NCBI GenBank assembly: GCA_963835065.1
Contig: CAWIEK010000041.1
Coordinates: 1 to 64,000, forward strand
Direction: 5' to 3'
Length of the DNA stretch: 64,000 nt
Source: an uncultured Chthonomonadaceae bacterium
GTDB lineage: Bacteria; Armatimonadota; Chthonomonadetes; Chthonomonadales; Chthonomonadaceae
A program made the translations under genes and the position numbers. The notes below the pieces were generated by a model. The model searched no databases, was not told the DNA's origin, and saw nothing but the letters and a program-made list of their open reading frames with translations. How positions within the stretch are numbered: position 1 is the first letter of the stretch; each line of letters begins with the position of its first letter. Of the stretch, positions 5,314 through 51,088 are shown one piece after another.

Positions 5314-6075
5314 ATGGGCGAAGCGCCATTAACCCATCTGTGGAAGATGTGCAAGCAGCACAAGGACCAGGACGCGCGCAGTCAGATCATTCAGCGTTAC
5401 GCGCACCTCGTTTCCATTACCGCCGGACGCCTGTTCGGGCCAATGCCTTCCGGCGTGGAGCGCGACGACCTTGTCGGCGCGGGCGTCGTCGGATTGGTGA
5501 AAGCCGTAGACCAGTTCGATCCGGGACGGGGCATCAAGTTCGAGACGTATGCCATTACCCTGATACGCGGCGCGATTCTGGAAATGCTGCGCGGCGACGA
5601 CTGGGTTCCCCGCCTCGTCCGCGACCAGCAGAAGCAGTTGAAACAAGCGTATATGCGCCTGGAAGCCAAACTGGGACGCCCGGCCACCGAAGAAGAAGTC
5701 GCCGCAGAACTCGGTATCACCACCGATAAACTCGACAAGATACTCAACAACATCGGGCGTACCGGCGTCCTTTCCCTCGACGACCTGCGCATGGGCAGCG
5801 AACAGCAGCGCCTGATTGACACCCTGCCCACTGATGACCTGTCTCCACTCGAATGTGTGGCCGTGCGCGACCGCCAGCGCGCTCTTGCCACCGCCGTAGA
5901 CAAACTCCCGGACCGCGAACGTACCGTCGTTGCCCTGTACTACCACGAAGGACTGACCTTCAAGGAGATCGGCACTGTCCTGACCGTTTCCGAATCCCGC
6001 GCCTATCAGCTCCACTCCCAGGCCGTCACGCGCCTGCGCGGGTATCTCAACCCCGAAGTGGAATTGTTTCCCTGA
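5314..6075 (+). CDS. fliA: RNA polymerase sigma factor, FliA/WhiG family
   Basis: DDLVGAGVVGL, FDPGRGIKFETYA, IRGAILEMLRGDDWVPR and region 4 LTFKEIG..SESRAYQLH. Confidence 0.92.
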   Translation: MGEAPLTHLWKMCKQHKDQDARSQIIQRYAHLVSITAGRLFGPMPSGVERDDLVGAGVVGLVKAVDQFDPGRGIKFETYAITLIRGAILEMLRGDDWVPRLVRDQQKQLKQAYMRLEAKLGRPATEEEVAAELGITTDKLDKILNNIGRTGVLSLDDLRMGSEQQRLIDTLPTDDLSPLECVAVRDRQRALATAVDKLPDRERTVVALYYHEGLTFKEIGTVLTVSESRAYQLHSQAVTRLRGYLNPEVELFP

Positions 6076-8058: not shown

Positions 8059-8400
8059 TCATCGCCGAACCCGCGCCGCCAGTTCCTTCAAACTCACCTT
8101 GATTTCCGTCAAATCCGTTCGCACCTGCGCCAGCGTGTCGTCGGTCTTGTCTACCCGGTGATGCAGATCCGCCCGGTCCGCAATGCTGATCTGATTCTGG
8201 TACTCGCAGGTGCTGACCCGCGTATTCAGCAGCGAATACCCCGTACCCGCCGCCACCAGCAGCGTAATCCACGCCGGCGCTTTCTCAAACAGCGTGTTCA
8301 CCGTCCACCCCGCCGGACGGGGAGCCTGCATCTGCTCCCGTTGCTGCGCCACCTGCGCCCGCACAATCTCTTTCGCCAAATCTTCGTATTCGCCAGACAT
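8059..8400 (-). CDS. Single-TM coiled-coil protein, holin-like (XhlA-like)
   Basis: One hydrophobic helix (WITLLVAAGTGYSLL) then a coiled coil; last gene of the module. Confidence 0.45.
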   Translation of the reverse strand: MSGEYEDLAKEIVRAQVAQQREQMQAPRPAGWTVNTLFEKAPAWITLLVAAGTGYSLLNTRVSTCEYQNQISIADRADLHHRVDKTDDTLAQVRTDLTEIKVSLKELAARVRR

Positions 8401-8418
8401 TGGTGTCTCCGGGAAAGG

Positions 8419-8515
8419 AGGCATAGGCATTAGGCATTAGGCACTAGCAGGCAGGCACAAACACTTTTCCCTTCTGCCTTCTTCCCTAATGCCCAATGCC
8501 TAATGCCTAATGCCT
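8419..8515. repeat. Inverted pair of heptamer arrays (TAGGCAT)n/(ATGCCTA)n
   Basis: Same family at 12046-12139, 12641-12757, 15685-15742 and about 55700-55750. Confidence 0.9.
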
Positions 8516-8521
8516 TCCTCC

Positions 8522-8914
8522 TCACTGCCTCTGCGCAATCACATGCCGCGCCAGAACCACGCCCGCGTATACTTCCGGCTGTGTGCCGATTGTCAGCCAG
8601 GTCGCGCCCTGATACGGCCCGATCACGTCGCCGCTTGTAATCGCCACCCCGCCCGCGCAGACAAAATCCATCGTCATGGCGGCCGCGATGTTGATAACGC
8701 CCTCGTATTGCAGCCGCGTCAACGTGGAAGCGCTGATAGGCTGCGGCACAAACGCAATGTTGCGCGTCAGCGCCCCGCTGCCGCCCTGCCCTGCCGTCGT
8801 CACCGCAAGTGATTGCCCCACCCGCGCAATCTGTTCCTGCATCGCCGCCGCCAGCCGCGCGCCTTCGCCCAAATCCTCCCGGCTGTTCCCCCGCCCGCCA
8901 CTCTCCATTCGCAT
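8522..8914 (-). CDS. Putative head-closure/stopper protein
   Basis: 130 aa beta-rich protein with ITSGDVI..YQGATW, located directly after the adaptor. Confidence 0.5.
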   Translation of the reverse strand: MRMESGGRGNSREDLGEGARLAAAMQEQIARVGQSLAVTTAGQGGSGALTRNIAFVPQPISASTLTRLQYEGVINIAAAMTMDFVCAGGVAITSGDVIGPYQGATWLTIGTQPEVYAGVVLARHVIAQRQ

Positions 8915-8954
8915 AACTTCTCACCTGCCTTCCACTTTCACTCTCCACTCTCAC

Positions 8955-9656
8955 TTACCAATCCCCCGCCGCAAACACAGGATCGGGCGAAACCACAACC
9001 GGCGTTGTCAAAACGATGCCGCGCAACTGTTGGGCGCGTTCCTGCAAGGCCGCGCACACGCCCGCTTCGTTGCTGCCCAATGCGCCCACCTTCACCACCA
9101 ATGCCATGCGCGCGCGATCCGTCGCCATCACTTCCAATCCCAGACTCGCCGCCAGAAGCGGAACGCCGCCCGCATCGCTCAAAAATTGCGTCCACTCCGC
9201 ATCACTGAAAACGGCTGTCGCCACATCCGTATCCAGCCCGTACAACCGCGCCTGCCCGATAGCCGTTGCCACATCATACGTCGCCGCCACTTCCACGCCC
9301 GCCAGAATTCGCGCCTGCACTTCACACGCCAGTTCGCGCGTCAGTCCGTCCGCAGTAGAGCGCGCGGCAAACACAAACCGTGCCACATACGCGCCGGGGT
9401 TCAGCCCGTTCGTGTTCAGCACAAACCAGATCAGCGGCGCGGCCAATGCCGTGCCCTGATAACTCGTAGCCGGAATCGCAACCCCGTCAAAACCCGCCAC
9501 CGCCCTTCCCAAACCATCCAGCAGCGTAAACGCCGGGGCGCTATACGGGCTTGCCGGCGCGCTCACAATCGTCACGGTATCATTCGGCGCGGCAATCGCC
9601 TGCCCGTACACAGGCCGTATCTCGCCCTGCCGCAAGGTAATGCTTGCTTCGTACAT
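8955..9656 (-). CDS. Head-to-tail adaptor with extra N-terminal beta domain
   Basis: C-terminal half TYDVATAIGQARLYGLDTD..FSDAEW..LLAASLGLE resembles SPP1 gp15-type adaptors. Confidence 0.6.
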   Translation of the reverse strand: MYEASITLRQGEIRPVYGQAIAAPNDTVTIVSAPASPYSAPAFTLLDGLGRAVAGFDGVAIPATSYQGTALAAPLIWFVLNTNGLNPGAYVARFVFAARSTADGLTRELACEVQARILAGVEVAATYDVATAIGQARLYGLDTDVATAVFSDAEWTQFLSDAGGVPLLAASLGLEVMATDRARMALVVKVGALGSNEAGVCAALQERAQQLRGIVLTTPVVVSPDPVFAAGDW

Positions 9657-9668
9657 GGGAACTCCAGA

Positions 9669-9790
9669 AGTAGTCAGTAGCGAGTAGTCAGTAGTCAGTA
9701 GAAGAACCCGTTTTCCAACTACTGCTATCGCGCGCAGCCGTGAGTAGCCGAGCATTTCTACTGGCTACTGACTACTCGCTACTGACTACT
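9669..9790. repeat. Inverted pair of heptamer arrays (TAGTCAG)n/(CTGACTA)n
   Basis: Same family at 47920-48044. Confidence 0.9.
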
Positions 9791-9794
9791 ACCC

Positions 9795-10364
9795 CTAACT
9801 TACGCTCCAAATGATATTCAGCGTGTCTGCCGCGCCCTTGTTCACCGCCGCGAACACTTGATGCGCCAATAGATTGCCGCCCGAACCCGCGTCCAGCAGG
9901 CCGGCTTCCGTGATTGCGCCCGTGCCGGTTCCGGCTCCGAACGTATACTGCACCTGATACACGTTCGCGCTCGGATTGGTCGGCGTTTGCGCCGCGCTGC
10001 GGGCGGCTTCCGTTCCCAGCGTGGTATCGCTTGCGCTTGCCGCCGTCGTGCCCGTGCCAATCGCGATATAGGCAAACGCCGTCAGCGCTTCCCCGCCCGA
10101 CACCGCCAGCAATTTGTTCTTGCCCGCCGTACAAATCAGATTGTGTATCCGCCGCTCGTCTTTCAGCGTTCCCGTCGCGTCATGCACCTGAATACACAAG
10201 TTCGTATGCAGTTTCAGGCTTTCCCCATCCATGCCGTCGCGCATCTGCTGCAATTCCCGCAAAAAGCCATCCAGTCGCTCCGAAAGCGCCAGAGTTGCGC
10301 GCGGAGCCTCGCCAACCACCGGCGCGTTTCCCTGACAATTCTCCCCAACAAAATCAACAACCAT
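9795..10364 (-). CDS. Phage fibre/collar-type structural protein
   Basis: NLICTAGKN, YIAIGTGTTAA..DTTLGTE, GTGAITEAGL and KGAADTLNIIW, a widespread virion fibre-base pattern. Confidence 0.7.
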   Translation of the reverse strand: MVVDFVGENCQGNAPVVGEAPRATLALSERLDGFLRELQQMRDGMDGESLKLHTNLCIQVHDATGTLKDERRIHNLICTAGKNKLLAVSGGEALTAFAYIAIGTGTTAASASDTTLGTEAARSAAQTPTNPSANVYQVQYTFGAGTGTGAITEAGLLDAGSGGNLLAHQVFAAVNKGAADTLNIIWSVS

Positions 10365-10375
10365 GCTCTTCCTCC

Positions 10376-11599
10376 TCATCCTTTCCCGCCAAACTCTGTC
10401 AGGGCATCTCCATGCCCGCTCTTGCCAAGCCCGTCTCCGAACGCTCCGCTTGTCACCAGCGTCAGCACGGCAAGCCCTGCGCCCGTCGCCTGCGCATTGT
10501 CCGCAAAGCCGAGCGCTTCGCCGATACGCCGCGCCAGTCCCAACGCGCGGCTGTCCGTCACATTCAGCGTTTCCACCACGAGTTTGCTTGCTTGCGCCTG
10601 GCGCGCGTCCGACCACGCCAATGCTTCCGTCAGCAATTTGGAAAGCGCCTGCCCGCCTCCATTGAGCATGGAAGCAAGGGTATCCGCAAGGCTCACGCCG
10701 TCATTCAATGCCTTGCCTGCCCGATTTATGCGCCCATCCGCAAGCCCAAGCGTCTCGCCCATCGCCTTGCTTGTGAGCAAGCGCGCGGCATCCGACAACA
10801 GCAGCGACTCGGCAAGCCATTGCTGCCATACCTGCGCCATCCCGTAGAAACGCCGCACACTGCTCGGCAGAAACAGGTCATACGGCTGCGCGTAAAGCGC
10901 GGCCACTTCCCCGCCCGTCAGCGCGCGATTGAAGTACGCCCACTGACCGATCTTTGTGCCGGACGCCAGCGTGATTCCCGCGCCGTTGCGATTGAACAAA
11001 TTGATATTGGCATTGAGGACCGCAACGGGAGCCGCCGTCGCCGTACTTCCGATTTGAACGCCATTGCGGTACAAAACGCTGCCCGCCGAAGACCAAACCA
11101 GCGCATACGTTTGCCATTGGTTTTGCGCCCAATTGCCTGCTGAAGCCGCCACAACGACCCGCCCATCCACGCCCCCGCTCGTCCAGCCGAAGTACAGATT
11201 GTTGTCCGAGTATTTCTGACAGCTAAATTCGACAGAGGGAGAAGCCTGATACCCGCCCCACAGCATCTCAATGGAAGCGCTGTTGTACGCCGCCGCCGGG
11301 TACGCCCGAAAGACAATCGTGCCGCTGCCGGAACTCACGCGCAGCCCGGTATCGAAATAATCCGTCGTTGTCGCTGTGGAAGCGTTTTTCACCAGGCACG
11401 GCCCCTCCTCGGAAGCCGACCAGCCAATCCCACCCGTCAAGGCCCCGCCCGCCCCGCCAACGACATCGCGCGGCGCTCCCCCGCCCTCGTTCAGCACAAG
11501 CCAGTTCGCCAGCCCCTGCGCCGACAGGCGCGACACATCCACCATCGCGCCCCACTCCGGCTTAACCGTCGGATCGCGCCCCATACCCGCAAGCGGCAT
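10376..11599 (-). CDS. LamG/concanavalin-like jelly-roll protein with C-terminal fibre-type repeats
   Basis: NWLVLNEGGG, WQTYALVW, LYRNGVQIG and FNRALTGGEVAALY, followed by K-x-x-x-E-x-L-x-x-x-D repeats. Confidence 0.7.
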   Translation of the reverse strand: MPLAGMGRDPTVKPEWGAMVDVSRLSAQGLANWLVLNEGGGAPRDVVGGAGGALTGGIGWSASEEGPCLVKNASTATTTDYFDTGLRVSSGSGTIVFRAYPAAAYNSASIEMLWGGYQASPSVEFSCQKYSDNNLYFGWTSGGVDGRVVVAASAGNWAQNQWQTYALVWSSAGSVLYRNGVQIGSTATAAPVAVLNANINLFNRNGAGITLASGTKIGQWAYFNRALTGGEVAALYAQPYDLFLPSSVRRFYGMAQVWQQWLAESLLLSDAARLLTSKAMGETLGLADGRINRAGKALNDGVSLADTLASMLNGGGQALSKLLTEALAWSDARQAQASKLVVETLNVTDSRALGLARRIGEALGFADNAQATGAGLAVLTLVTSGAFGDGLGKSGHGDALTEFGGKG

Positions 11600-11608
11600 A
11601 ACATCCTC

Positions 11609-12028
11609 CTAACTCAACTTTTCCAACTCAAACAAAACCGCCACCGTCGCGCTTGCGCCCGTCGCGTTGTTCAGGCACGAAACCGCCATATAGCGGCTGG
11701 CCGGAACCCGCCCCAACGGAACCTTTTGCGTCCCATTCGTCGGCGGCAGGCTGCGCGAAAGGCTTGTCCGCGCATAGACCTGCCCGGATACCCGCCGGTT
11801 ATTGATCGTAATGTCAATCGAGCCTGCCGTCACCGTACTCGTAATCACCGCGTATAGCCACAAATCTCCCACGCTGGCATTGTCCCCCAGCACATCCACC
11901 TCGCCGTTGGAATTGGCGTTGTTGGGAGTGTTCGTCGCCGTCGTTTGCAGCGTTGAATTGTTCAGCACAATCACCCCCGTGCTTTCATCCGTCCCAAACA
12001 GCGCCCCCGTAGATCGCGTAATCGCCAT
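11609..12028 (-). CDS. Phage virion-associated beta-sandwich protein
   Basis: Own RBS (AAGGAGG), beta-rich, located between capsid and LamG genes. Confidence 0.5.
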   Translation of the reverse strand: MAITRSTGALFGTDESTGVIVLNNSTLQTTATNTPNNANSNGEVDVLGDNASVGDLWLYAVITSTVTAGSIDITINNRRVSGQVYARTSLSRSLPPTNGTQKVPLGRVPASRYMAVSCLNNATGASATVAVLFELEKLS

Positions 12029-12143
12029 GAAGCCCTCCTTCGGAATAGGCATTAGGCATTAGGCATTGGCAAGCAGATAGGAAGTTCTTCTGTCTTCTGC
12101 CTTCTGTCTTCTTCCCTAATGCCTAATGCCTAATGCCTCTCCT

Positions 12144-12623
12144 CTACCACTCCCCCACCTCCGCGTTGCGAACATCTTCAGCCGAAACCGCCGCGCCCCG
12201 GCCCAGCAGCTTTTCCGCCCGGCTGACGGCAACCGTAGAGATGTCCTGTATCCGCGCCGTCGCCGCGCTTGCGCTGCCCATCAGCCCGTAAGCCGCCAAT
12301 ACCGCCAAAAACTGCTGCGTCGGTGTCGTTTGCATGTTGATAGGGTCTACATACTTGATGTCCGACAGCAATTGCTTCAAAACCGGAACCGTCATGCCGC
12401 TCGGAACCCCACTCGGAACCGCCGTATCGTCCGGCAACTGCCGCAGACCCACCACCACATCGAACAAATCCCCCAACAGCACTGTGGGAGCCACCAGCCC
12501 GCGCGGAATTGCATCCGTTCCCGGCGCGTTCAGCAAACCGGCGATCTGCGCGTCCGTCTTCCCCGCATACCCCAGCCCCTTCGGGTCCCCCGCAATCTCC
12601 GCCTTCAACACCGCATAATCCAC
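12144..12623 (-). CDS. Phage hypothetical protein
   Basis: GTG start with GGAGG; DYAVLKAEIAGDP..YAGKTDAQIAGLLNA resembles genes found after capsid genes in phages. Confidence 0.55.
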   Translation of the reverse strand: MDYAVLKAEIAGDPKGLGYAGKTDAQIAGLLNAPGTDAIPRGLVAPTVLLGDLFDVVVGLRQLPDDTAVPSGVPSGMTVPVLKQLLSDIKYVDPINMQTTPTQQFLAVLAAYGLMGSASAATARIQDISTVAVSRAEKLLGRGAAVSAEDVRNAEVGEW

Positions 12624-12754
12624 GTCCCACCTCCATTCAGAATAGGCATCAGGCATTAGGCATCAGGCATTAGCAAGCAGACACAAAACACTTTTGTCTT
12701 CTGTCTTCTGTCTTCTGCCTTCTCTCTTCTTCCCTAATGCCTAATGCCTAATGC

Positions 12755-13135
12755 CTACACCGCCAGGTCACGCCAGCTTCCATCCGCCTCTTGCTGCATC
12801 TGCCCGCAGTCATGGAACACAAAGGCCGCGTGGACATGCCCGCGCCACTCCCGCCCATGCGTTTCCGAAGCAACCGGCAAACCCGGCGGCAAATGGTACG
12901 GGTCATAATCCGTCACCACGCACGCCCGGTTCACGCCCTCCACTTCCAGCGGCAGCCAGTACGCCGTATCCGCATCCCGCCACCGCGTCACGCGCCCGCC
13001 ACCCAAAAGCGGCACATACTGCCGCGCCTGAAGCGCATGGTCAAAAACCACAATCTTCCCGTTCACAGACATCAGCGACGGCTGCGAACACCCCGCCCGA
13101 TAAATGCCGATAGCGGCGAAAGAAGGGAGAGACAT
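12755..13135 (-). CDS. Hypothetical protein in the head module
   Basis: ATG with GGAGG RBS, in operon orientation. Confidence 0.5.
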   Translation of the reverse strand: MSLPSFAAIGIYRAGCSQPSLMSVNGKIVVFDHALQARQYVPLLGGGRVTRWRDADTAYWLPLEVEGVNRACVVTDYDPYHLPPGLPVASETHGREWRGHVHAAFVFHDCGQMQQEADGSWRDLAV

Positions 13136-13148
13136 AGCAACCTCCAAA

Positions 13149-13268
13149 GTGATGAATGATGAATGATGAGTGATGAATAAGATGCTATCTCATACCCGCT
13201 CGGTATTGCCGGGAGCAGAATACTGGATTGGGCATTTCATTCATCACTCATCATTCATCATTCATCAC
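13149..13268. repeat. Inverted pair of heptamer arrays (GATGAAT)n/(ATTCATC)n
   Basis: Directly visible downstream of the capsid gene. Confidence 0.9.
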
Positions 13269-13271
13269 TTA

Positions 13272-14330
13272 CTACAGCGTCGTCCCATAGATCAAATAGC
13301 CCGCCGTCGCGTACCCTGCCGACTGCCAGCCGTTTGTCGAGCCGTCTACGCACAGGAATCGCCAGTCGCGCAGGAACGCGGCTTCGATCATATCGCCTTT
13401 GCGCTTGTCTTCGCGCCACCGGCGCACCGAAATGCCCCGCTGTCCCGTCGTGTCGTCCGGCGCGTCGAACGTGTAGCCCAGGCTTACGGTTTTCAGGCCG
13501 GGATGCGGCGCGATGTAGCAGACCAGCGCGGCCCCAAACGCCGTGCCCGTATCGAGCGCGTTCCACAGATACCCGCCCGCGTATGCCTGCCCCTCGCCCG
13601 CGCTGTTGCGCTGCGCCATGCCCACAACCGTTTTCAGGCCGCGTATGGTTTTGGGCAGTCCCGACCCCGAAACCATATCCGGGTTCGTGTACTGCATCAG
13701 CGTCTTGATTTCCGCCGTTTCCGCCAGTGCCAATGCGCTGTCATAGCCCATCACCAGCGTATTCGCGTCCCGCGCAATGCTCGCAATGATCTGCGTCCGC
13801 GCCGCCTTGATGTTGGCAAGCGGACTTGTGTTCGCGTTGTTCTTGGCCCAGGACACGTCGCCCGGATTAGTTCCCGCCCCGTTCACCAGCAGCTTCTTGT
13901 TGCTCGCCGCGTAACTCGCCGCGCCCAATGTCATTAGCGCCACCTGATACTCATGATCAATCAGCAGCCGTTCGGTCAACTGAATTGTCTGGTCGGTATC
14001 GGGCATCAGCGGGTTATCCGCAATCGCCACTTCCGCGTCCGTCACCAGCCCGCGATACGCATACTCTTCCGCGTAGTAGTTCTGGTTGCTCAACGACAGA
14101 TCAATTTCCGCCGCTTCCGCCCCCTGCGCCCGCAAACTCGTCGGACGGTTCCCCGCATCCAATAGTGAACCCGACAGAAAATCCTCCCGCTTGTACACGA
14201 AATACTTGTTTGAACGCTTCGTCACCGGCAAGGGCGGCAAAACCTGATCCGCCACATAACTCTCGTTCCGGTACATCAAGGACACATTGGTAAGCGCTTG
14301 GTCAATGTGAATCTGGCTAATCGCAGGCAT
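13272..14330 (-). CDS. Major capsid protein (HK97 fold)
   Basis: HIDQALTNVSLMYRN..YVADQVLP N-terminus and SLGYTF..AGYLI C-terminus; 352 aa; follows the cement gene. Confidence 0.85.
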   Translation of the reverse strand: MPAISQIHIDQALTNVSLMYRNESYVADQVLPPLPVTKRSNKYFVYKREDFLSGSLLDAGNRPTSLRAQGAEAAEIDLSLSNQNYYAEEYAYRGLVTDAEVAIADNPLMPDTDQTIQLTERLLIDHEYQVALMTLGAASYAASNKKLLVNGAGTNPGDVSWAKNNANTSPLANIKAARTQIIASIARDANTLVMGYDSALALAETAEIKTLMQYTNPDMVSGSGLPKTIRGLKTVVGMAQRNSAGEGQAYAGGYLWNALDTGTAFGAALVCYIAPHPGLKTVSLGYTFDAPDDTTGQRGISVRRWREDKRKGDMIEAAFLRDWRFLCVDGSTNGWQSAGYATAGYLIYGTTL

Positions 14331-14352
14331 GAAGAAACTCCTTTCAAGCAGA

Positions 14353-14458
14353 GGGGTCAGGATTCAGGATTCAGGGGTCAGTGAAAGCGTACTGTTTTGT
14401 ACAGTCTTCCGTACAACTGCAGCATTGCCCTGACTCCTGACCCCTGAATCCTGACCCC
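14353..14458. repeat. Inverted pair of heptamer arrays (GGATTCA/GGGGTCA)n
   Basis: Lies between the cement and capsid genes. Confidence 0.9.
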
Positions 14459-14872
14459 TTATTCAACAACCACTCCCGGCTGAAGCAGCACATCAATGAG
14501 CGTGTCCGTTGCCGCCGTGGACGCAATGGACTGCATAGCGATACCGACAAGGCCGCGCACGTTCGCGCCGCCCGTAGCTACGGGAACCGCTTTGGTCACG
14601 CGCCCCGACGTGTCGGCAATCTTGATCGGATCGCCGAAGTTGATGGCCGTGCCGGTCAGGAAGCGGCACTGCGCGATGCCCGACAGCACAACCGGCCCGT
14701 AACTGTTATTGTCGAACGCCAACTGCGTCACGCCGATAACGCTCGCCGCGCCTGCCGCGCTTGGCGCTTTCACATTACCCGCGTTGGCTCCCGACGCGAC
14801 CACGACCGTATTGGCCGCCAGAACCGTGTCGCCCGGAAACGACTTCACCAAAACCGGAGTTTGTCTCGCCAT
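14459..14872 (-). CDS. Capsid cement/decoration protein (DUF2190-like)
   Basis: VIGVTQ, VVLSGIA, INFGDPI..DTSGR, VGIAMQ and LIDVLL. Confidence 0.75.
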   Translation of the reverse strand: MARQTPVLVKSFPGDTVLAANTVVVASGANAGNVKAPSAAGAASVIGVTQLAFDNNSYGPVVLSGIAQCRFLTGTAINFGDPIKIADTSGRVTKAVPVATGGANVRGLVGIAMQSIASTAATDTLIDVLLQPGVVVE

Positions 14873-14877
14873 ACTGT

Positions 14878-16161
14878 TTAATTCCCCTCCTGCGAACGGG
14901 CGCGAACCGACAGCGCCAGATCGCGGTTTTCGCCGCACACTTCCTTGAACGCGGCGGTATGGTCCAGTCCCGCCGTCCGCATCTTCTGTTGCGTCAGTGC
15001 TTCCAATCGCCCCACGTCCGCCGTTTCCGACGCTTTGACCGTCGCGCCGCCCGCCAACTGCGGCAGTTTGGCGCGTACATTCAGCGCGGGGATCGCGGCG
15101 GCAAACGCGACAGGCGTGTCCCGCGCTACGGTTCGCCACGCTTCCGCTTCCGCCGGGGTCATTTGAAACGCCCGTACCCACCCGTCAATCAAGCGCGAGT
15201 CAACCGTAAACCGCGCCGCCTGCTCCGCGTCCTGCGCCTGCTGCCGCAAGCGGTTCAGTTCCGCTTCCATAGCGGCAAACCGCGCTTCGCCACTCTCCAC
15301 AGCGAAAAGGCTTCCCTCCCCACCAACGGACACGCCCACGCCTGCCGCCCCGCAGATGTTTTCCTCTCCCGTAGCGGACATAACGGATGTGCCGGCGCTA
15401 TCCAAAACCGGCGCGTCAGCCGAGTTTGCCCCTTTCAGTTCCGGCGTATGCAAATGCGCGTCAATCTCCTCCGAAGACACTCCCACGCGCTGAAACAACG
15501 CCCGCAATCCCGCAAGCAAAGCCATCGAAACCAACTCCTTCCCGGCGTTCCCGCCATCCTCTATGCTGTTCTCGTCCTCCACCCCCACAGCAAACCCCAC
15601 GCCCCGCAAACTCCCTTCCTCCCCTTCCTCCCCGCCGCAACACAAAGGCAGAAGACCATTCCCGTCTTCTGCCTTTCTGCTGCTCAATGCCTGATGCCTA
15701 ATGCCTAATGCCTCCTCCCTAATGCCTAATGCCTGATGCCTGATACCTTCCTCCCGAAACGCCGCCTGCATCACCGCATCGGCCACGCGGGGATGCAGCA
15801 CGAACGCGCCGCCAATCGGCTGCTTGCTCGTCCGGTTCCATTCGCTGCTGATCTTGATGGGTTCGCCCTGCGTCACGTCTTGCAGCCAGCGTGGAATGGC
15901 GTACTCGGCCAGAATGGCCTGTCCCTCCCGCCACAACTTCCGCACCACGCCCAGTTTGCCGTCAAAGATCGTCGGAATGTGTTCGATGTTGAGCGGCACG
16001 GGCGCAAACCCGGCAATCGCCGCGTCCGCTTCCGCCTCGCTCAACCCGAACTGCTTGTCGGGATAATCTCCAACCCGAAAGAACGTGCCCTTCCGCACAA
16101 CAAAATCGCCCCGCGCAGCGTTCGGCTGCGTCGGGGCGGCAAGCGTAACCTCATCCTGCAT
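14878..16161 (-). CDS. Mu-like prohead protease/scaffold protein
   Basis: FRVGDY, VPLNIEH, ISSEW and GGAFVLHPRV protease domain, then an acidic/helical scaffold; carries a translated heptamer repeat. Confidence 0.75.
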   Translation of the reverse strand: MQDEVTLAAPTQPNAARGDFVVRKGTFFRVGDYPDKQFGLSEAEADAAIAGFAPVPLNIEHIPTIFDGKLGVVRKLWREGQAILAEYAIPRWLQDVTQGEPIKISSEWNRTSKQPIGGAFVLHPRVADAVMQAAFREEGIRHQALGIREEALGIRHQALSSRKAEDGNGLLPLCCGGEEGEEGSLRGVGFAVGVEDENSIEDGGNAGKELVSMALLAGLRALFQRVGVSSEEIDAHLHTPELKGANSADAPVLDSAGTSVMSATGEENICGAAGVGVSVGGEGSLFAVESGEARFAAMEAELNRLRQQAQDAEQAARFTVDSRLIDGWVRAFQMTPAEAEAWRTVARDTPVAFAAAIPALNVRAKLPQLAGGATVKASETADVGRLEALTQQKMRTAGLDHTAAFKEVCGENRDLALSVRARSQEGN

Positions 16162-16202
16162 GGTTTCCTCCCATACTCATAATGCCTGCGCCTCGCCAAA
16201 GC

Positions 16203-16231
16203 AAAAAGACCGGCAAAATGCCGGTCTTTTT
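16203..16231. terminator. Bidirectional rho-independent terminator
   Basis: aaaaagaccggc-aaaat-gccggtcttttt. Confidence 0.7.
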
Positions 16232-16268
16232 CCGTTATAACTTCCTGTCTTTCTCGCGCTGCGCGGCC

Positions 16269-16691
16269 TCAGCAACCCGGGCCGTCCGGCAGTAGATGCA
16301 CATAGAAGGAACGCGAGACTACCAGCGTTCCATCCACGATCACATCCACAAAGTACCGTCCCGCTTCGGTAAGCAGCGAACCGCTCAGAGTAAATTCAAG
16401 ATTAATAACCCTGGAAACGTCGTCAAACCAGATGACGTCATCCAGGCGCGTTAACTCTTTACCCGAGGGACAGCGCACAGACATCCCTAAAGGCCACGCG
16501 CCCATTGCCTCTGCAAAAGAAGCGACCACAACCATGCGTGGACATGGGGCGGGCAGGCGCAACATCCCAATGTTGGCAAAGAGACCCACCAGCGTTATTT
16601 TGCCCGTTCGCCTATCGTCAATAACTTCGTCACAGATGATAATCGAAATGCACTGCGGCCTGCCGTTTAGAAATCCAGTCAAGTCACTCAT
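16269..16691 (-). CDS. Small beta-sandwich protein (DUF6941-like)
   Basis: IIICDEVIDDRRTGKITLVGLF and EAGRYFVDVIVDG; lower GC; flanked by 24-bp direct repeats. Confidence 0.65.
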   Translation of the reverse strand: MSDLTGFLNGRPQCISIIICDEVIDDRRTGKITLVGLFANIGMLRLPAPCPRMVVVASFAEAMGAWPLGMSVRCPSGKELTRLDDVIWFDDVSRVINLEFTLSGSLLTEAGRYFVDVIVDGTLVVSRSFYVHLLPDGPGC

Positions 16692-17038
16692 AGCGCTGAT
16701 CCTACCCCGGCTTGTTCCTACCCGCCTGTTTTTCTCGCGCTGCGCGGCGCCGGCAATGCTTCGCTTCTGATGCTTGACGGCGCTAATCGCAACTTAGTTG
16801 CATCATTATAACACGTTTGCCGACATATCCGAAATACAGGCACAACAAGTAACTGTTCAGGGTTGTGAGAATCTTTTTAGCGTATGCCTGACAACAATTT
16901 GTCTTTGCCTTTTCGTCCTTTTTCGTGTGCTTCGCGTGTTTCGCGGTTCCCTATCTCCTTTTCTCCTTTTCTTTAATCTTTGCCGTCTTTGCCCCTTTGC
17001 GGTTCGATGTATTCGCGTTCATTCGCGTTTATTCGCGG

Positions 17039-18466
17039 CTAATCTCCTTCGCCGTTGTAGTTCAGCGCAGTCGTCAGCAATTCGATTGCCCGTGCCCCCT
17101 GCGCGTCGCTCATCGGCGCAATCCTGCTGCTGTTACGCGCGTCTGCGATTTGGCTTTGCGCTTCCCGCCGCGCCGTTTGCTCCTGCGCCAAGCCCCGTTC
17201 CTCGTCCGCATCGAGCGGCGGGATGCCTAACTCTTCGCGGACAAACTTCGCCTGCTTCCAGATCACGCCGTTGTCAATGAGCGTGGAAAACATCTGCGCG
17301 GTTTTCAAGCGGTCGCCGCTTTCCCCGCTTCCTAATCGCAGGCGCGGCAGCAGGCTCGTATCGCAATTCGCGAAGTTGAGAACGCACAGGCGGCGGATGA
17401 TCTGTTGATTGACTACGCCCTCCAAATCGCGGCGCAGAAAATCGTAAACCGTTTGCCCCGTGTCCTGATGCACTTCACCAAGCGCGAGGCTGTTCTGCCC
17501 CGCGCCCGTAGTCAGCGTGTTGCTGTGGATGTTAAGCGCGATCTGCTCGTTATGGTAGCGAATGGCGTTCAGAAAGCCGTCGAATACCTGCGACACCACG
17601 CTCACCAGTTCGTACTTCACGTTTTCCGGCAAAACCGGAGCCGCGCCTTGCCGGATACTGTCGAGGGCGGTTTGCGCGTCCTGCATCGCCCGCGTATTGC
17701 CCGCCGGGTATTGCGCAATCAAAACTGGAGCGCCCCACCGTTCCAGCGCCATCGAAAGAAACCGCGTCAGGTTGTCGGCGCTAAACCAGTGCTTGTAACA
17801 CGCCCGCCAATCGCCCATACCATGCGGCAGCCCGCCCTGCGGATTGTGCGTATACAACACGCATTTCGCGGCGGGAACCTCAAAGTCATATCCCGAAAGC
17901 GGCGTATAGCTCGTCAAAGTTTCGATTTGCAGAGTTTGCGGATTCAGGTTAAAGTCTATCTGCTTGGCGGGCTTGGCGTAAAAGCCGTCGTACCCGATTT
18001 TGCCCCGGTATGGCCCGTCCTCCAAATACCGATACCCGATCTCGCACACCTTGAAGCCGTCCCACGCCGCCCGCAGCATCTCGAACAACACCGCCCGGAA
18101 ATCCTGCGCCAGTCCGGCAGGGGAAACGATGTTGTTCAGGCTCCACGCCACAAACGCCGCGTACTCGCTCGCCCTTGCGTGGCGCGTATCCTGCGGATCG
18201 GTCACAGCCGCAACGATCTGCCAGCCGTCGGCCAGTATCGCGTACCGCTTCAAATTGAAATTCGCCCGACACGCCGCATACGTCAGCATATCGTCCGCCG
18301 TATCAAACCCCTTTTGCGACGTGAGCCGATCCGGGTTGTACGGCGGGAACTTGTACGCGGGGGCAAAAATCCCGTCATAGCTGCCCATGACGGGATTTTC
18401 GATTGCCGATTTTTGATTTTTGATTGGCGCATCGCCGGACGCGGCGCGCTGTGTTCTGGCTGGCAT
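17039..18466 (-). CDS. Phage portal protein (Mu gp29/DUF935 family)
   Basis: GFKVCEI, PHGMGDWRACYKHW, LERWGAPVLIAQYP and SLALGEVH; GGAGG RBS before ATG 18466. Confidence 0.85.
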   Translation of the reverse strand: MPARTQRAASGDAPIKNQKSAIENPVMGSYDGIFAPAYKFPPYNPDRLTSQKGFDTADDMLTYAACRANFNLKRYAILADGWQIVAAVTDPQDTRHARASEYAAFVAWSLNNIVSPAGLAQDFRAVLFEMLRAAWDGFKVCEIGYRYLEDGPYRGKIGYDGFYAKPAKQIDFNLNPQTLQIETLTSYTPLSGYDFEVPAAKCVLYTHNPQGGLPHGMGDWRACYKHWFSADNLTRFLSMALERWGAPVLIAQYPAGNTRAMQDAQTALDSIRQGAAPVLPENVKYELVSVVSQVFDGFLNAIRYHNEQIALNIHSNTLTTGAGQNSLALGEVHQDTGQTVYDFLRRDLEGVVNQQIIRRLCVLNFANCDTSLLPRLRLGSGESGDRLKTAQMFSTLIDNGVIWKQAKFVREELGIPPLDADEERGLAQEQTARREAQSQIADARNSSRIAPMSDAQGARAIELLTTALNYNGEGD

Positions 18467-18768
18467 AGCCCTTATCCTCCTTCCCCTTCTTTCCCCTACA
18501 AGTCCAGAAAGCCACGGCATTTACGCCTATGGAGGAATGGACTTCTTGTTGCGAAACCGCTGTCTCGGCAAAGGGCTTTGTAATTGCCCCTGCCCGTGAG
18601 CAGGGGCTTACGCGCCCACGTAGTATATACACACTTGTATGCTTTTTTAGAAGGTCGGTTTGGAGGAATTTGGAAGTTTTTTGAAAATATTTTGTTGCTG
18701 TCCAAAATTCGTTGATTTGACCTTGCGGTATAAAACGCGCCAATCTGATCATCAACGAATTTTGGACA

Positions 18769-19721
18769 CTACCAAATTTGCCTGAAAATGCAATGACAGG
18801 CGACGGAATGAATTCCTTCGCTCAATGGCGTTCCGCCAAGTGTCCTTCGGACACACCATTTATCAAAAGCGAGTCCGTATCCGAATTGCTGAAACGCCGT
18901 TGCCAGCAACCCTGAAACTTGAACGATTGCCTGTAGCAACAAATATACGCAGGGCAACGCCACAAGGTCGGGACGGTGTAGCTGTTGGGCAAGCAGGAGT
19001 GGAGTAATGCCATCCTTGTCGAGATGGTTCGGGGCGGCTCCATGCGCCAGAAGTTGACAGCAAATGTTCCCGTTCATTATAAACCTCATGACATAATGTA
19101 AGGCGGTTTGCCTGTACTCATTTTCAATGGAAACGTCTGCGCCATGCCCTAACAGCAGGCGCGTCATGTCCACATGGTTATTCGTAATAGCCCACATCAA
19201 CGGCGTCTCGCCCTCACTATCCTGTTGGTTGATGTTCGCGCCATGTTCCAAAAGCAGTTGCGCCACCTGCAAGTGGTTGCACATAATCGCATAGTGCAGG
19301 GCAGATTGGTGATTCCTATCGGTTGCGTTGCAATCCGGGCTATGTGCGAGCATACTGCGGACTAACGGCACTTCTTCCCAGTAAAAAGAACTGATAATCC
19401 CTCCGTCTGCCTCGTCCACATACGAGTTCCACAAGCGAACATAAATGCTGTCGGGGTAGTATCCACAGGTGCAGAGGAACGGTGCAGCAGTTGGCTGAGC
19501 AACAATTTGAGCGTAGGAGCAGGCGGTGTGTTAAAGCGCGTGTTGGGGTCGGCTCCGGCATTGGCAAGCGCAAACGCCTGTTTTCTGTCGTTGTTAATCA
19601 GGGCGGCAATCAGTTGGCGGTTGAGGGCATACTGCCGCTGCTGGGAGCGCACCCATAATCCCATGCCGGCCATGAGCAACGAAACCGGCAGCAGTAACAA
19701 CAGCAGGGAACGGCGTTTCAT
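18769..19721 (-). CDS. Membrane-anchored ankyrin-repeat protein (frameshift near 19435; 3' end uncertain)
   Basis: N-terminal TM, AGADPN, SALHYA, GETPLMWA and GITPLLLA spread over two frames. Confidence 0.75.
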
Positions 19722-20596: not shown

Positions 20597-20932
20597 TCAC
20601 GCAAGGGCGAACTCCGTATACTTGCGTATGGTCGGATGCTTAAAGGCAAGCACAATGTCGGAATGAGGGACGCCCCCCGCGAGGAATATCTCTGCGATGT
20701 CCATGTCCGTGCCGTTGTGTTCAATGTAAATCTTGTCGTTGAGGATGTCGCAGTGAACGAGGATGCCGTGAATGCGGCTATTGTTCAGCCATCCGACCTG
20801 TAGAAGTTCATAGTGACCCTGCTCGTCATTGCAAACCATTTCGGTGCGAATGTCCTGAATTTTCGGAATCTCGGCGGCGACAGCGCACAAAGCCTGCCGA
20901 ATCAAGGCCCGGTATCTATCTATTCTATCCAT
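20597..20932 (-). CDS. xisI: XisI family protein
   Basis: GHYELLQVGW, HGILVHCDI, IYIEHNGTD and GVPHSDIVLAFKHP. Confidence 0.9.
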   Translation of the reverse strand: MDRIDRYRALIRQALCAVAAEIPKIQDIRTEMVCNDEQGHYELLQVGWLNNSRIHGILVHCDILNDKIYIEHNGTDMDIAEIFLAGGVPHSDIVLAFKHPTIRKYTEFALA

Positions 20933-21336
20933 CGTGCTATCTCCTCCCGGTCAGAATGAAATACCAGCAGGCGCAGCGATTCATCCTCAATCAAATTGCG
21001 CCCTTCAAGGATGTCGAAATGTTCGTCATACGCGGGAACGGACACGGCAAGATACAGGACGCGCTCAGGATCATTGCGCCGCAGCAGACTTCGATATAGC
21101 ATGTACTGGCCTAATCCGCGTTGCAGTTCCGGCATTTCCACGCCGCCTACCAAACTCTTGATTTCCACCGCGATCCTGCGTCCGTCCCGTTCCGCCGCAA
21201 CCAGTACCTCCGCGCCCAAATCAATATACAGCGTTTGCTTGCCGCGCTTGATCGGATAAGGGTCATGCGTAATCGTCCATCCCGCTTTGATAAGCGCGTT
21301 TTTGCAGGCGTCGTGGAAAAGGTCTAGTCTTGACAT
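20920..21336 (-). CDS. xisH: XisH family protein
   Basis: FHDACKNALIKAGWTITHDP, IDLGAE, IAVEIKS and GQYMLYR. Confidence 0.9.
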   Translation of the reverse strand: MSRLDLFHDACKNALIKAGWTITHDPYPIKRGKQTLYIDLGAEVLVAAERDGRRIAVEIKSLVGGVEMPELQRGLGQYMLYRSLLRRNDPERVLYLAVSVPAYDEHFDILEGRNLIEDESLRLLVFHSDREEIARWIE

Positions 21337-21477
21337 ACTGTTTGATACGACATGCCGAAGTGAAAAACCTTCCGGCGCGTTGCTTCTTTTCTGGTGATTT
21401 GCCAAGATCGCGCAGGAGTTGCCGCCTGCTTTGGCGAACTCAGAAGACGCACCCATTGCCCGAAAGGAACGCCGCTC

Positions 21478-47919: not shown

Positions 47920-48044
47920 GAGTAGTCAGTAGTCAGTAGTCAGTAGTCAGTAGAAATACCTGCTTACTCAAAATTGTGCAGTGCGGTAACAACTTACAGG
48001 CGAGGGTTTTTCTACTGACTACTGACTACTGACTACTGACTACT
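47920..48044. repeat. Inverted pair of heptamer arrays (TAGTCAG)n/(CTGACTA)n
   Basis: Lies between paoC-like copy 2 and xdhC. Confidence 0.9.
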
Positions 48045-50320
48045 ACAAAAGCTTATCCGGCGTAATCGGCAGGTCGCGGACGCGCTTGCCGGTGGCGTGG
48101 AAAATGGCGTTGGCGATGGCGGCGGGACCGCCCGTGATGCCGATCTCGCCTACGCCTTTCACGCCAATCGGGTTGACATGCATATCCGTTTCCTGCACGA
48201 AAAAGGCGTCTATGTCGGGCACATCGGCGTTGACGGGAACGTGGTACTCGGCAAGGTCGCGGTTGACGACGCGGCCCAGGCGCGGGTCCATGATCGTCGC
48301 TTCGTGCAGGGCCATGCCGATAGCCCACACCATGCCGCCTAAAATTTGCGAACGGGCGGTCTTGGCATTTAGAATACGCCCCGCCGCGAACGCGCCCACC
48401 ATGCGGGCAATCCGCGTTTCACCCGACGCCGGGTTGACATGGACTTCCACAAACTGCGCGCCGAACGCATGGGACGAATACTCTTTCTTTTCTTCGCCCG
48501 GTTTCGCGCTGCCTTCCGCCGTCAGCATATCCTTGTTGTTACGTTTCAGCAAGTCAGCGTAGCTTTCGCCCTGCGCGGGGTTGTTTTTGACGAACAAGCG
48601 CCCGTTTTCGCTGCCGATCTGGTCTTCGGCTTGGCCGTGTAAGGGCGAGTTGGCATCCCCTATCGCTAATTGAACAGCCTGCTTGCGAACTTCAAGCGCC
48701 GCCGCTTTTAAGGCCGAGCCGACGCTTGCCGCCGTTTGCGAACCGCCCGACACCGGAGCCTGCGGCATCCGAGTATCGCCCAACTCAAAGCGGGCTTTCT
48801 CTACCGGGACGCCCACAATTTCCGCGATAAGCTGCGTCATGATCGTATACGTGCCTGTGCCCAAATCCTGCGTTCCGCTCACGCCCCGAACGCGCCCGTC
48901 CGCCATGATTTCTACGCGGGCGGTTGCCTCACTGCGGTTTGTCGGATACGTGGACGTTGCCATGCCATAGCCGATTAGCCAGCCATTTTCGGTTTTCATG
49001 GAGCCGATTGCGGGGTTGCGCTTGCTCCAGCCGATGCGCTCCGCGCCCTGCCGGTAACATTCGCGCAGTTCCTTGCTCGACCAGGGCAGTTTGCGGTGTT
49101 CGTCCATTTCGGCATAATTGCGCAGGCGCAGTTCAACGGGGTCAAGATGCAGCGCGTATGCCAGTTCGTCCATTGCGGACTCCAGCGCGAAACAGCCCGG
49201 CGCTTCTCCCGGCGCGCGCTGGCTTGTGGGCGTCCCTTTGTTGATGCGAACCAGTTTATGCGTCCCTACCACATTCGGGACATGAGTACAAAATGGGCGC
49301 GACAACGCCGCATTTTTCCGTAAACTCGTCATAGGGCGAGGTGTTGTTCGTTGTCGCGTGAATGATGCTTTGCAGTCTGCCATCCCTGTCCGCTCCAAGC
49401 GCGACGCGCTGCAATGTCTGCGCCCGATGCCCTACGGACGTAAACATCTGCTGCCGCGTCAGTTCCAATTTGACGGGACGGCCTACTTTGCGCGCGGCAA
49501 TCGCGGCCAAAACGACGTGCGGCCACGTAAACCCCTTGCATCCGAACCCGCCGCCCACAAAATAGCAGACGGTACGGACGTTTTCGCGGGGTATGCCCAA
49601 AATTTTAGCCGTGACGTTTTGTGAACCCGAAACCCATTGCGTCGCGTCGTAAATGGTCAGTTTATCGCCTTCCCAGGCGGCAATTGTGGCCGAAGGTTCC
49701 ATCGGGTTGTGGTTTTCCACGGGCGTTCGGTACAGGCGATCCACTTTTACGGGAGAAAGCGCAAGCGCCACTTCCGGTTCGCCGCGCTTGCTGTCGTTGG
49801 GTTCGCGTCCCGCATCCGCCGGCGCTTTGATGGCTTCGTGCAGATGCCGCTCCATTTCGGTTTTGGGCGGCTCCTGCTGGTACTCCACTTTCACCCGTTC
49901 CCCCGCGTACCGCGCCTGCTCAAACGTTTCCGCGACGACGACGGCGATATGCTGTCCGCTGTAATAAATGGTGGCATCTTGAAGCGGCAGGAGTTTTTGT
50001 CCCGGTTTGCCGGGATTCTGCTGCTGTTGCTGCTGCTGCGCGTCTTCGGGCTTGCTTTTGGCGTTGGCCTGTGGGAACTGGTTTAATTTAGGCGCGTTGA
50101 GGTGCGTGATAATGGTCAGGACGCCGGGCAGATGTTCCGCTTCACTGGTGTCTATGCTGACAATGCTGCCGCGCGCAATCGTGCTTTGGATGATGTAAGC
50201 GTGGACAAGGCCGGGCAGGTCGAACTCTGCCGCATACGGTGCGGTTCCCGTCACCTTTTGCCGCCCATCAATGCGGTTGAGCGGCTTGCCCACAATCTGC
50301 CCACCTAAACCATTGCTCAT
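48043..50320 (-). CDS. Xanthine dehydrogenase family Mo subunit, PaoC/YagR-like, copy 2 (frameshift near 49285)
   Basis: RIDGRQKVTG, HNPMEP, VGGGFGCK, RAPGE, DLGTGTYT and KGVGEIG. Confidence 0.9.
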
Positions 50321-50353
50321 GTCTGTTTCAAGCTGCATGACTCAAAACTCCTG

Positions 50354-51064
50354 TTACTTTCTGTGTTGCTTTTCGTGTTTTTCTTTCAGGTCTTCCGTCA
50401 AGGCCCAGAGCGCTATGCGCTGAAGCAGAACGCCGATGACGGCAACCGCGCCGGCAAAAGCCGAATAACGCATAATCTCCGAAGGCGTGGTGGGAATATA
50501 CAGCAGCGCTCGGTTGATATAGGGACTCAGCCATTTTAGCGTCATCAACTCACCGGCAAAGACCACGCTTCCCATGAGGAAGGCTTTTGCAGGGCGTCGA
50601 ATCAACAGGCCAAGCGCAAAAGCGATGCAAAAACCGCCCGTTTCCAGCCTGACCATGCCCATCAAACTGCCAAGCCCGCATAGCGCGGCCAGAATCGCGC
50701 CGAACACGTGAAAAGAACGTTTTCCAGTCCGTCCGTCAGCAGTCGGCGCGGCGAATGGAAGAAGGAGCGTTCGCCGCGTGGGAACCTCGCCAACCGTCAT
50801 GACTTCCTGCTGCGCTTCCGCCGCAATCTCGGCAATGGCCTGCCGCACGAAAGATCGGGTTCAGCTCGGTTTCCACGCAGGATAATTGCAGTTCCTGAAC
50901 GGTTCCCATAGCAACACTGCTCAAGGCGGTTCCCGAATTTCGCGCCGCAAGCATCGCGTCTGCTGCTGCAATCGCGCCGCCCGTTCCCAAACGTCGCGCT
51001 GCATGGTGGCATCCGGGCGCAGCGTGGAAGTGGGCGCTTGTTCCAGTTGTTCAAAGTGTTGCAT
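50354..51064 (-). CDS. Membrane protein between the two Mo subunit genes (two frameshifts)
   Basis: ATG 51064 after GAGG; VWERAARLQ, then VRQAIAE and several TM helices in ORF 50354..50848. Confidence 0.55.
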
Positions 51065-51088
51065 AGGACGCTCTTGCCGTCTGCCTCC

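Follow-up and report, generated by a model that had tools for sequence, protein, structure and literature searches.

Why would a bacterium keep an orderly set of genes for the head and neck of a phage when no tail can be found to go with them? The question is posed by a 64,000-nucleotide stretch of DNA (the window; contig C41, CAWIEK010000041.1) from an uncultured Chthonomonadaceae bacterium, whose genome (G000) is 8.0 Mb long and 92% complete. Twelve module genes run along the minus strand from 18466 to 8059, and every one of their frames is open, in line with the head, neck and holin-like module described in a first-pass annotation. The module lies 8 kb inside a 210-kb contig with host genes on both sides. 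From the sequence evidence we suggest that it belongs to a host-kept kit, similar to a gene transfer agent (GTA), for tail-less, DNA-filled heads that would be filled by headful packaging, plugged and released by lysis. We give this reading a probability of roughly 45%, and favour the tail-less option because a tail was looked for and not found. The genes of the locus, in order along the minus strand, are as follows (aa, amino acids).

17039..18466, minus strand: Mu-like portal protein, 475 aa (PF06074 Portal_Mu, E 7e-56; phrog_113, E 7e-60)
16269..16691, minus strand: DUF6941 gene, a lineage-specific insertion between portal and protease (PF22091, E 2e-14)
14878..16161, minus strand: head maturation protease/scaffold (labelled via its homologue in genome G009)
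14459..14872, minus strand: capsid cement/decoration protein, 137 aa (PF09956, E 2e-5)
13272..14330, minus strand: major capsid protein (MCP), 352 aa (phrog_1005, E 5e-46)
12755..13135, minus strand: g6, a conserved small protein directly after MCP (family in 18 compared loci, including a prophage)
12144..12656, minus strand: g7, a genus-specific accessory protein (among the compared loci only in G001; no family)
11609..12028, minus strand: g8, a genus-specific accessory protein (65% identity in G001; no family)
10376..11599, minus strand: LamG/concanavalin-domain protein, likely a head fibre or adhesin (PF13385, E 6e-9)
9795..10364, minus strand: gp80-like fibre/virion structural protein, 189 aa (PF23140, E 3e-5; phrog_5417, phrog_4176, phrog_240)
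8955..9656, minus strand: fused protein, N-terminal domain of ~118 aa plus a head-tail adaptor-like C-terminal domain (adaptor by position)
8522..8914, minus strand: head-closure (stopper) protein, 130 aa, of the long-tailed phage neck type (fold match)
8059..8400, minus strand: holin-like small protein (one moderately hydrophobic stretch and a predicted coiled tail)

The last conserved head gene of the module encodes a plug. The stopper model (predicted local distance difference test, pLDDT, 84) has a best structural match of Z 10.6 (root-mean-square deviation 3.2, 103 residues aligned), and 20 of its 22 top matches are titled as neck or virion entries of phages, PBSX, SaPI or GTAs, among them the virion entry 6tba of the Rhodobacter capsulatus GTA (RcGTA; Z 8.4). 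An Atlas lead, PF25138, was present in 28% of a cluster. A podovirus-type nozzle was not seen, the post-adaptor gene encoding 130 aa that match long-tailed-phage stoppers. The adaptor label of the preceding C-terminal domain is suggested by its place between MCP and stopper; in most relatives the two halves of this fused protein are separate genes, and the adaptor family matched only phrog_1732, of unknown function (10 of 13 members). Sequence searches of MCP and both adaptor halves against solved structures gave nothing.

Family matches among the module proteins cover portal, MCP, cement, LamG and gp80-like proteins, and the labels protease/scaffold, adaptor and holin come from homologues and position, the window's own proteins having no direct family match. 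The protease/scaffold, itself without a family match, is 61% identical over 117 aa to a G009 protein that weakly matches Mu-like_Pro and phrog_2976. The cement family was found in 18 of the compared loci, tblastn with the DUF6941 gene matched none of 20 relative loci, and g6 (model pLDDT 85) gave no clear match in fold searches (best Z 5.2). The g8 product may be part of a head fibre. For the product of 8059-8400, which had no family match, a holin function is plausible from its sequence (hydropathy 1.09 over 19 residues, and 1.53 in G001), and in G001 the holin-like gene is followed by a homologue of an endolysin-like gene. Pfam scans of the longer open reading frames (ORFs) of the window (those of at least 250 aa beyond 30 kb) found no integrase, replication, tail or lysin gene, which agrees with the first-pass description of the locus as free of tail, integrase and replication genes.

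That description also had the module lacking terminase and lysin, which holds for the locus only, because G000 encodes both at other sites. Of 20 relative loci fetched, 7, that of G001 included, have a terL gene (phrog_2) just upstream of the portal, and tblastn with the G001 gene recovered two orthologues in G000, at C63:205310-206816 (79%) and C22:11361-12897 (73-76%), in agreement with a terminase elsewhere, which the first pass had raised as one option. Pfam terminase searches of G000 had been negative, misleadingly. Both copies keep the Walker A/B (ATPase) and nuclease motifs and have a ratio of nonsynonymous to synonymous substitutions (dN/dS) of 0.16-0.19. The separation of terL from the portal is not an assembly break, since the two lie far apart on single contigs in G023 (275 kb) and G013 (413 kb). 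The best PDB matches of the terL profile were 8dkr, 4idh and 5m1q, which we take to be headful enzymes from phages E217 and Sf6 and from a Thermus phage. The ORF after the holin-like gene of G001 has a homologue in G000 at C16 (28% identity), which matches the endolysin family phrog_21825 (E 9e-18). Public contigs from relatives align on the module, and none bridges portal to terL. A contig from run X1 (on L099) carries terL and, 632 bases later, a second copy of the region upstream of terL, which suggests a tandem duplication in a close relative.

Each terL copy contains one frameshift. Of 91 orthologues compared with G001, 8 carry breaks in G000 (10 in all over 44,185 aa), rpoB and rpoC among them, and recA is also in two pieces; the assembly thus has indel errors. 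At the C63 break, contigs of three public runs from two studies are without one base, one of them ~95% identical over 1.4 kb. With essential genes broken as well and the break missing from contigs of relatives, the C63 frameshift is likely an assembly error. Single-base frameshifts were seen at about 1 per 4,400 codons, on C48 (rpoB, rpoC), on C54 (recA) and in the window at 302-1174, 18769-19721 and 48043-53574.

The portal and both terL copies share an upstream element:

18621..18660, minus strand: promoter-like motif upstream of the portal, core CTTCTAAAA-N9-ARTGT with an A/T-rich upstream tract, common to both terL copies

The same motif precedes terL in G001 and G002. Its 11-mer core occurs 10 times, against 1.4 expected, and the pattern has 4 sites in G001, 11 in G002 (0 in the controls), and 1 in G009; G023 and G005 have none. 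Most simply, this would mean that a putative operon promoter was duplicated when terL moved away. A further locus may control the system: C56:28223-29472 (L210:6224-7473) holds a sigma-like gene and a divergent XRE repressor, kept in all three genomes of the genus. In 10 main-lineage loci the gene before terL encodes a short C-terminal motif that is also present in the sigma-like protein. Weaker homologues of the sigma-like gene also occur in module-less genomes. We regard the pair as a candidate switch, with the sigma-like gene as a possible activator of the module.

The first pass had supposed that the module is maintained rather than randomly decaying, and its distribution and constraint support this. 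MCP was found in 22 of 60 relatives of the order (23 of 61 genomes with G000), as a single copy in 21; in G052 a prophage carries a second one, and the G001 gene is in two pieces. A sample of the phylum gave MCP in 16 of the 39 genomes from the order and in 7 of the 261 from outside it, five of these 7 being weak matches. The portal was detected in 24 of the 61 genomes and terL in 41, and gene order was conserved across the compared relative loci. By simple Nei-Gojobori counting on one pair, G000 and the same-genus G001, dN/dS was 0.09-0.33 in 10 of 12 module genes (portal 0.14, protease 0.33, g6 0.11, g8 0.13, gp80-like 0.15, holin-like 0.09), with a host median of 0.158 (81 genes); the faster genes are g7 (0.57) and LamG (0.50). 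MCP is 85% identical to that of G001, and its 5' piece is saturated (pN/pS 0.15). Synonymous divergence overlaps that of the host (pS 0.40-0.78 for the module versus a host 10-90% range of 0.51-0.63), and the GC content at third codon positions is host-like, as claimed (0.734 versus a host median of 0.725; 68 genes). Of eight spacer or internal repeats tested, six have 140-324 matches genome-wide, including an in-frame host repeat within the protease gene (15680-15760; 324 matches). No high-identity active phage was found: the best MCP identity was 28%, both among 50,697 phage records and in IMG/VR, the scan of which finds close relatives only, and a library-wide MCP search returned only unnamed proteins, 47 of them at E 1e-30 or better. 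Single-copy presence across the order, synteny, purifying selection, host repeats in the spacers and the distance of MCP from phages all point to maintenance.

Simple vertical inheritance fits the main lineage and does not hold for this genus. Main-lineage tree distances follow those of RpoB (rho 0.81 for MCP in 16 genomes, 0.83 for portal in 15 and 0.81 for terL in 14) with G001, G002, G009 and G030 set aside, a choice made after seeing the trees; with these four included, rho is 0.22-0.37. Two out-of-order genomes were left out throughout, and G000 itself has no RpoB row. In IQ-TREE analyses of 16 rows, the portal of G000 and G001 was rejected from the family clade (approximately unbiased (AU) test, p 2e-98) and grouped with the tailed cluster of G009, and MCP was compatible with that clade (AU p 0.16); terL of this genus is of a second type, which other genera have as well. 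With the portal rejected, MCP compatible and terL of the second type, the genus appears to carry a mosaic of a seemingly ancestral capsid and a replaced portal and motor.

In G009 (L044:1943-15383) and G030 (L217, L220), this tailed cluster of 13 kb runs from terL to distal tail genes between host genes and is conserved in both genomes of their genus. Its head genes are related to the module, and its tail genes include one for a Phage_tube_2-like tube; the fetched flanks showed neither a replication nor an integrase gene. It is a candidate conventional tailed GTA. This cluster and a prophage in G052 (C40) resemble the module in portal, protease, cement, MCP and g6, and G009 does so also in the fused adaptor and the stopper; unlike the module, both continue with terminator-like, tube and distal tail genes, none of which was found in G000.

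One option raised in the first pass was that the tail, like the terminase, lies elsewhere in the genome, and our searches did not bear this out. The G009 tube as query matched 5 of 61 genomes, none of them G000, G001, G013 or G023. Profiles of the tube, the terminator-like protein and two distal proteins from the tailed relatives matched nothing in six frames of G000, in the same search in which a stopper profile does recover 8522-8914. PF18906, PF06199, PF11367 and PF10145 were negative for G000 and G001, with PF06199 and PF11367 matching in a Caulobacter control; PF18906 also missed the tube of G009 itself, as Pfam missed the terL of G000. Tape-measure and terminator Pfam matches, in five genomes per search, fell only inside the G013 prophage. 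A PHROG scan of 49 hand-picked ORFs (27 of them from tail-less loci, picked from ~108 unassigned ORFs and some on the opposite strand) gave no tube or tape measure in tail-less loci, and it also missed the G009 tube. None of the examined motif sites heads a tail-like gene. As a tail marker, phrog_167 was uninformative, matching in all 14 controls. At C44:60767-67394, G000 has a 203-aa gene, a weakly tape-measure-like protein of 1145 aa and Rhs genes, which may together belong to an injection or polymorphic-toxin system; no test links this locus to the module.

A second, unrelated head module (DUF3467, SPP1-like portal, scaffold, phrog_267 capsid, adaptor and stopper) was found in 10 of 22 genomes of family f3 and in none of the 8 of those with the main module (loci L166 in G040, L168 in G047, L213, L214 and L216). 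It fills the same role as the main module in its 10 genomes. DUF3467 and a small helical gene are common to both modules. In the 8 genomes examined, its mapped genes also end at adaptor and stopper, the genes beyond being judged by eye only. A head-only kit across the order, with at least two unrelated head lineages both ending at the stopper, suggests that what is selected is the sealed head as such, without a tail.

Of the three genomes that bear the module and are assembled in at most five contigs, two carry large insertions in the capsid gene. In G001 a 23-kb island (C2:3194142-3217245; L026-L027) with a large serine recombinase and type III restriction-modification splits MCP near codon 116. 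In G013 the gene is interrupted near codon 15 by a complete 38-kb siphophage (C1:1516260-1554470; L161-L163), likewise with a large serine recombinase, at an inferred attachment site that holds a 20-bp inverted repeat. Judged from the junctions, both MCP frames would be restored if the elements excised precisely.

One rival reading is that the module harms phages. As an anti-phage device, its heads, neck proteins or terL would soak up tails, mis-assemble capsids or mis-package phage DNA, and fibre-decorated heads would act as decoys; what the conserved genes would build stops precisely where a tail docks, at the stopper, the order has tailed relatives in circulation (the G052 prophage, G032, and C215 of G008), fibre genes evolve fast, and elements that use MCP as attachment site would switch the module off. 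We nevertheless think this unlikely: a complete set of motor, portal, plug and lysis genes would exceed what interference needs, and recombinase elements commonly target conserved genes of any kind. It is improbable that the module is the head part of a conventional split GTA whose tail genes lie at another locus, too divergent to be recognized or in the unassembled 8% of the genome. The terL, endolysin-like and regulator genes are already dispersed, the closest portal relative is in a cluster that has a tube gene and other tail genes, and known positives (terL of G000, tube of G009) escaped the family searches, but the tube query and the profiles of the nearest tailed relatives found nothing in G000, tape-measure and terminator matches were confined to a prophage, and no examined motif site led to a tail-like gene.

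Quite improbable, too, is a system that works in relatives and is packaging-dead or decaying in G000. The terL frameshifts would fit, as would the failure of profile searches of G000 to find homologues of DUF3467, F10, F18 or terS. A DinB-type polymerase gene sits in or beside the module at varying positions in 8 relative loci (L026, L029, L031, L033, L036, L037, L040, L045) and is frameshifted in G000 at C22:2141-3449, and G002, of the same genus and 80% complete, has terL and no MCP or portal match. All twelve module frames are open, however, rpoB, rpoC and recA are broken too, public contigs lack one base at the C63 break, and the terL copies evolve under constraint. Very improbable, and already largely refuted, is an ordinary prophage remnant or a satellite of the capsid-forming phage-inducible chromosomal island (cf-PICI) kind stripped of its other genes. 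Its mosaic ancestry would suit such an origin (the nearest relatives of portal and protease are in a tailed cluster and a prophage), as would the G001 copy near a tRNA gene and flanks that differ between G000 and G001; against it stand host genes where integrase, replication or regulatory modules would adjoin, spacers filled with host repeats, synonymous divergence like that of host genes, and MCP matches to phages of 28% at best.

Several observations weigh against the interpretation we prefer, a host-kept kit for tail-less heads. Given the mean error rate (10 breaks in 44,185 aa), two independent errors in terL would have a chance of ~1%, and the comparison with outside contigs covered the C63 break only. 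No terS was found in G000 by profile search. A divergent tail elsewhere is still conceivable, as the family searches were insensitive here and the genome is 92% complete. A looser version of the motif had 7 matches in G000 versus 4 in the control, and 9 or 10 of the 11 sites in G002 head an unrelated multi-copy element. By this MCP query 38 of 60 relatives have no module, including G005, a single contig and 99% complete. Purifying selection between two species alone cannot separate host-level from earlier phage-level selection, and the replacement of portal and terL shows exchange with phages. Finally, the system is known from genes alone: particle, expression and transfer are all predicted.

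Under the preferred interpretation, the later steps would follow from what is observed (gene content, stopper fold, distant terL with intact motifs, shared motif, selection and distribution). The C56 repressor/sigma-like pair would switch the system on, and the portal operon and terL would be co-expressed from the duplicated promoter. The headful-type motor would then fill procapsids with host DNA, a prediction made since no replication origin, integrase or terS favouring the module's own DNA was found. Adaptor and stopper would seal the heads, fibres would decorate them and lysis would release them without tails; delivery might occur when a tail from a related temperate siphophage docks on the conserved stopper, as in cf-PICI capsids. 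A broader and doubtful proposal is that the Chthonomonadales repeatedly took over siphophage heads of different kinds and dropped the tail each time, giving a host-owned 'tail-pirating GTA', sealed heads filled with host DNA that are infectious only through captured phage tails. Temperate elements, by integrating into the capsid gene, would either counter the system or profit from it. If so, gene flow, and possibly phage suppression, would be tied to phage outbreaks, and where the capsid gene is occupied, capsids would be made only after excision. A head-only kit kept across the order would connect the so far separate concepts of host-owned gene transfer agents and of satellites that pirate tails. 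It would also provide a natural series for asking why cells keep costly viral genes: a tailed prophage, a tailed cluster, a tail-less module with terL attached (G001), one with terL moved away (G000), and capsid genes split by excisable elements.

Several neighbouring and regulatory features were set apart from the module. The first-pass annotation had placed an ankyrin gene upstream of the portal, and it is there, split by a frameshift:

18769..19721, minus strand: flanking host ankyrin-repeat gene, frameshift-split, outside the module (Ank Pfams; 163 tblastn matches across the genome)

The XisH/XisI pair upstream of the module (20597-21456) was set aside as a multi-copy host family (XisI, 15 genome matches), and FliA (5314-6075) was rejected as a module part, with no match in relative loci and its G001 orthologue located elsewhere. 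Palindromic low-complexity host repeats occupy the spacers at 8435-8520, 9660-9795, 12060-12145, 12690-12760 and 13150-13270. In 6 relative loci an NAD-dependent epimerase gene lies antisense between portal and protease. We dropped the idea of a module-specific regulon because the motif also heads the unrelated multi-copy element, which consists of ~250 nt behind the motif with a strong ribosome-binding site, an ORF of 8-10 codons and a conserved downstream block. Its locations are:

G000 C57:110941 and G002 L248, L250, L252 and L254-L260: multi-copy element loci
G000 C33:67158, C2:204633, C19:86980, C48:89572, C46:24506, C30:38091 and C44:342683: further element matches

This element is a candidate small RNA, leader or type I toxin-antitoxin locus; four copies had no Rfam match at the gathering score. 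LexA (SOS) control of the operon was likewise unsupported. Of 5 genomes, 4, all of family f1, have a GTACG-N12-CGTAC dyad just before lexA (C49:624139-624160 in G000; L261-L264), which is a candidate for an unusual LexA operator; with at most 1 mismatch, it occurs in none of 37 module-related upstream regions, nor in 5 recA leaders.

To our knowledge, few GTA-like systems are known outside the Alphaproteobacteria, and those are described as head-plus-tail particles. Targeted literature searches found no description of the present system, which is apparently undescribed. What is new here is that terL exists as a dispersed pair with a duplicated promoter-like motif, that the module has a mosaic ancestry and a sister cluster with a tail, that it and a second module are mutually exclusive, and that two elements sit in the capsid gene.

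Set beside known systems, the module resembles RcGTA and the Caulobacter crescentus GTA (CcGTA), both viriforms, in that its packaging and structural genes derive from a phage, genes for replication and integration are missing, the parts lie at distant loci, terL is of headful type and retention in a clade appears to be long (PMC11841831, PMC7947584). The chromosomal head and packaging genes of G000 have this character. They differ from an RcGTA-type (Rhodogtaviriformidae) cluster in ending at the stopper and holin-like gene, with no tail found, and in their Mu-like portal, phrog_1005 capsid, phylum (Armatimonadota), repeatedly replaced head genes and being known from genes alone. The Faecalibacterium FpGTA is likewise a two-locus GTA-like system outside the Alphaproteobacteria with particles lacking an identifiable tail; it encodes short-tail (podovirus-like) proteins, whereas the neck of the module ends in a long-tailed-phage stopper (PMC12946183). 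cf-PICIs also combine portal, protease, capsid, adaptor and connector without a tail, and their tail-less heads could dock foreign tails; they carry integrase, replication and regulation modules, terS and HNH, have no lysis genes, and package their own DNA (10.1101/2025.02.11.637232). The module resembles them in having an adaptor (by position) and a stopper fold with no tail gene in the locus. Unlike them, it is old and chromosomal, has no integrase, replication or regulation modules beside its packaging genes, and comes with putative lysis genes, a holin-like gene in the locus and an endolysin-like gene at C16 that adjoins the module in G001. By analogy, the system would work like a GTA in its gene logic (PMC11841831, PMC7947584, PMC9953437) and like a cf-PICI in its particle design (10.1101/2025.02.11.637232).

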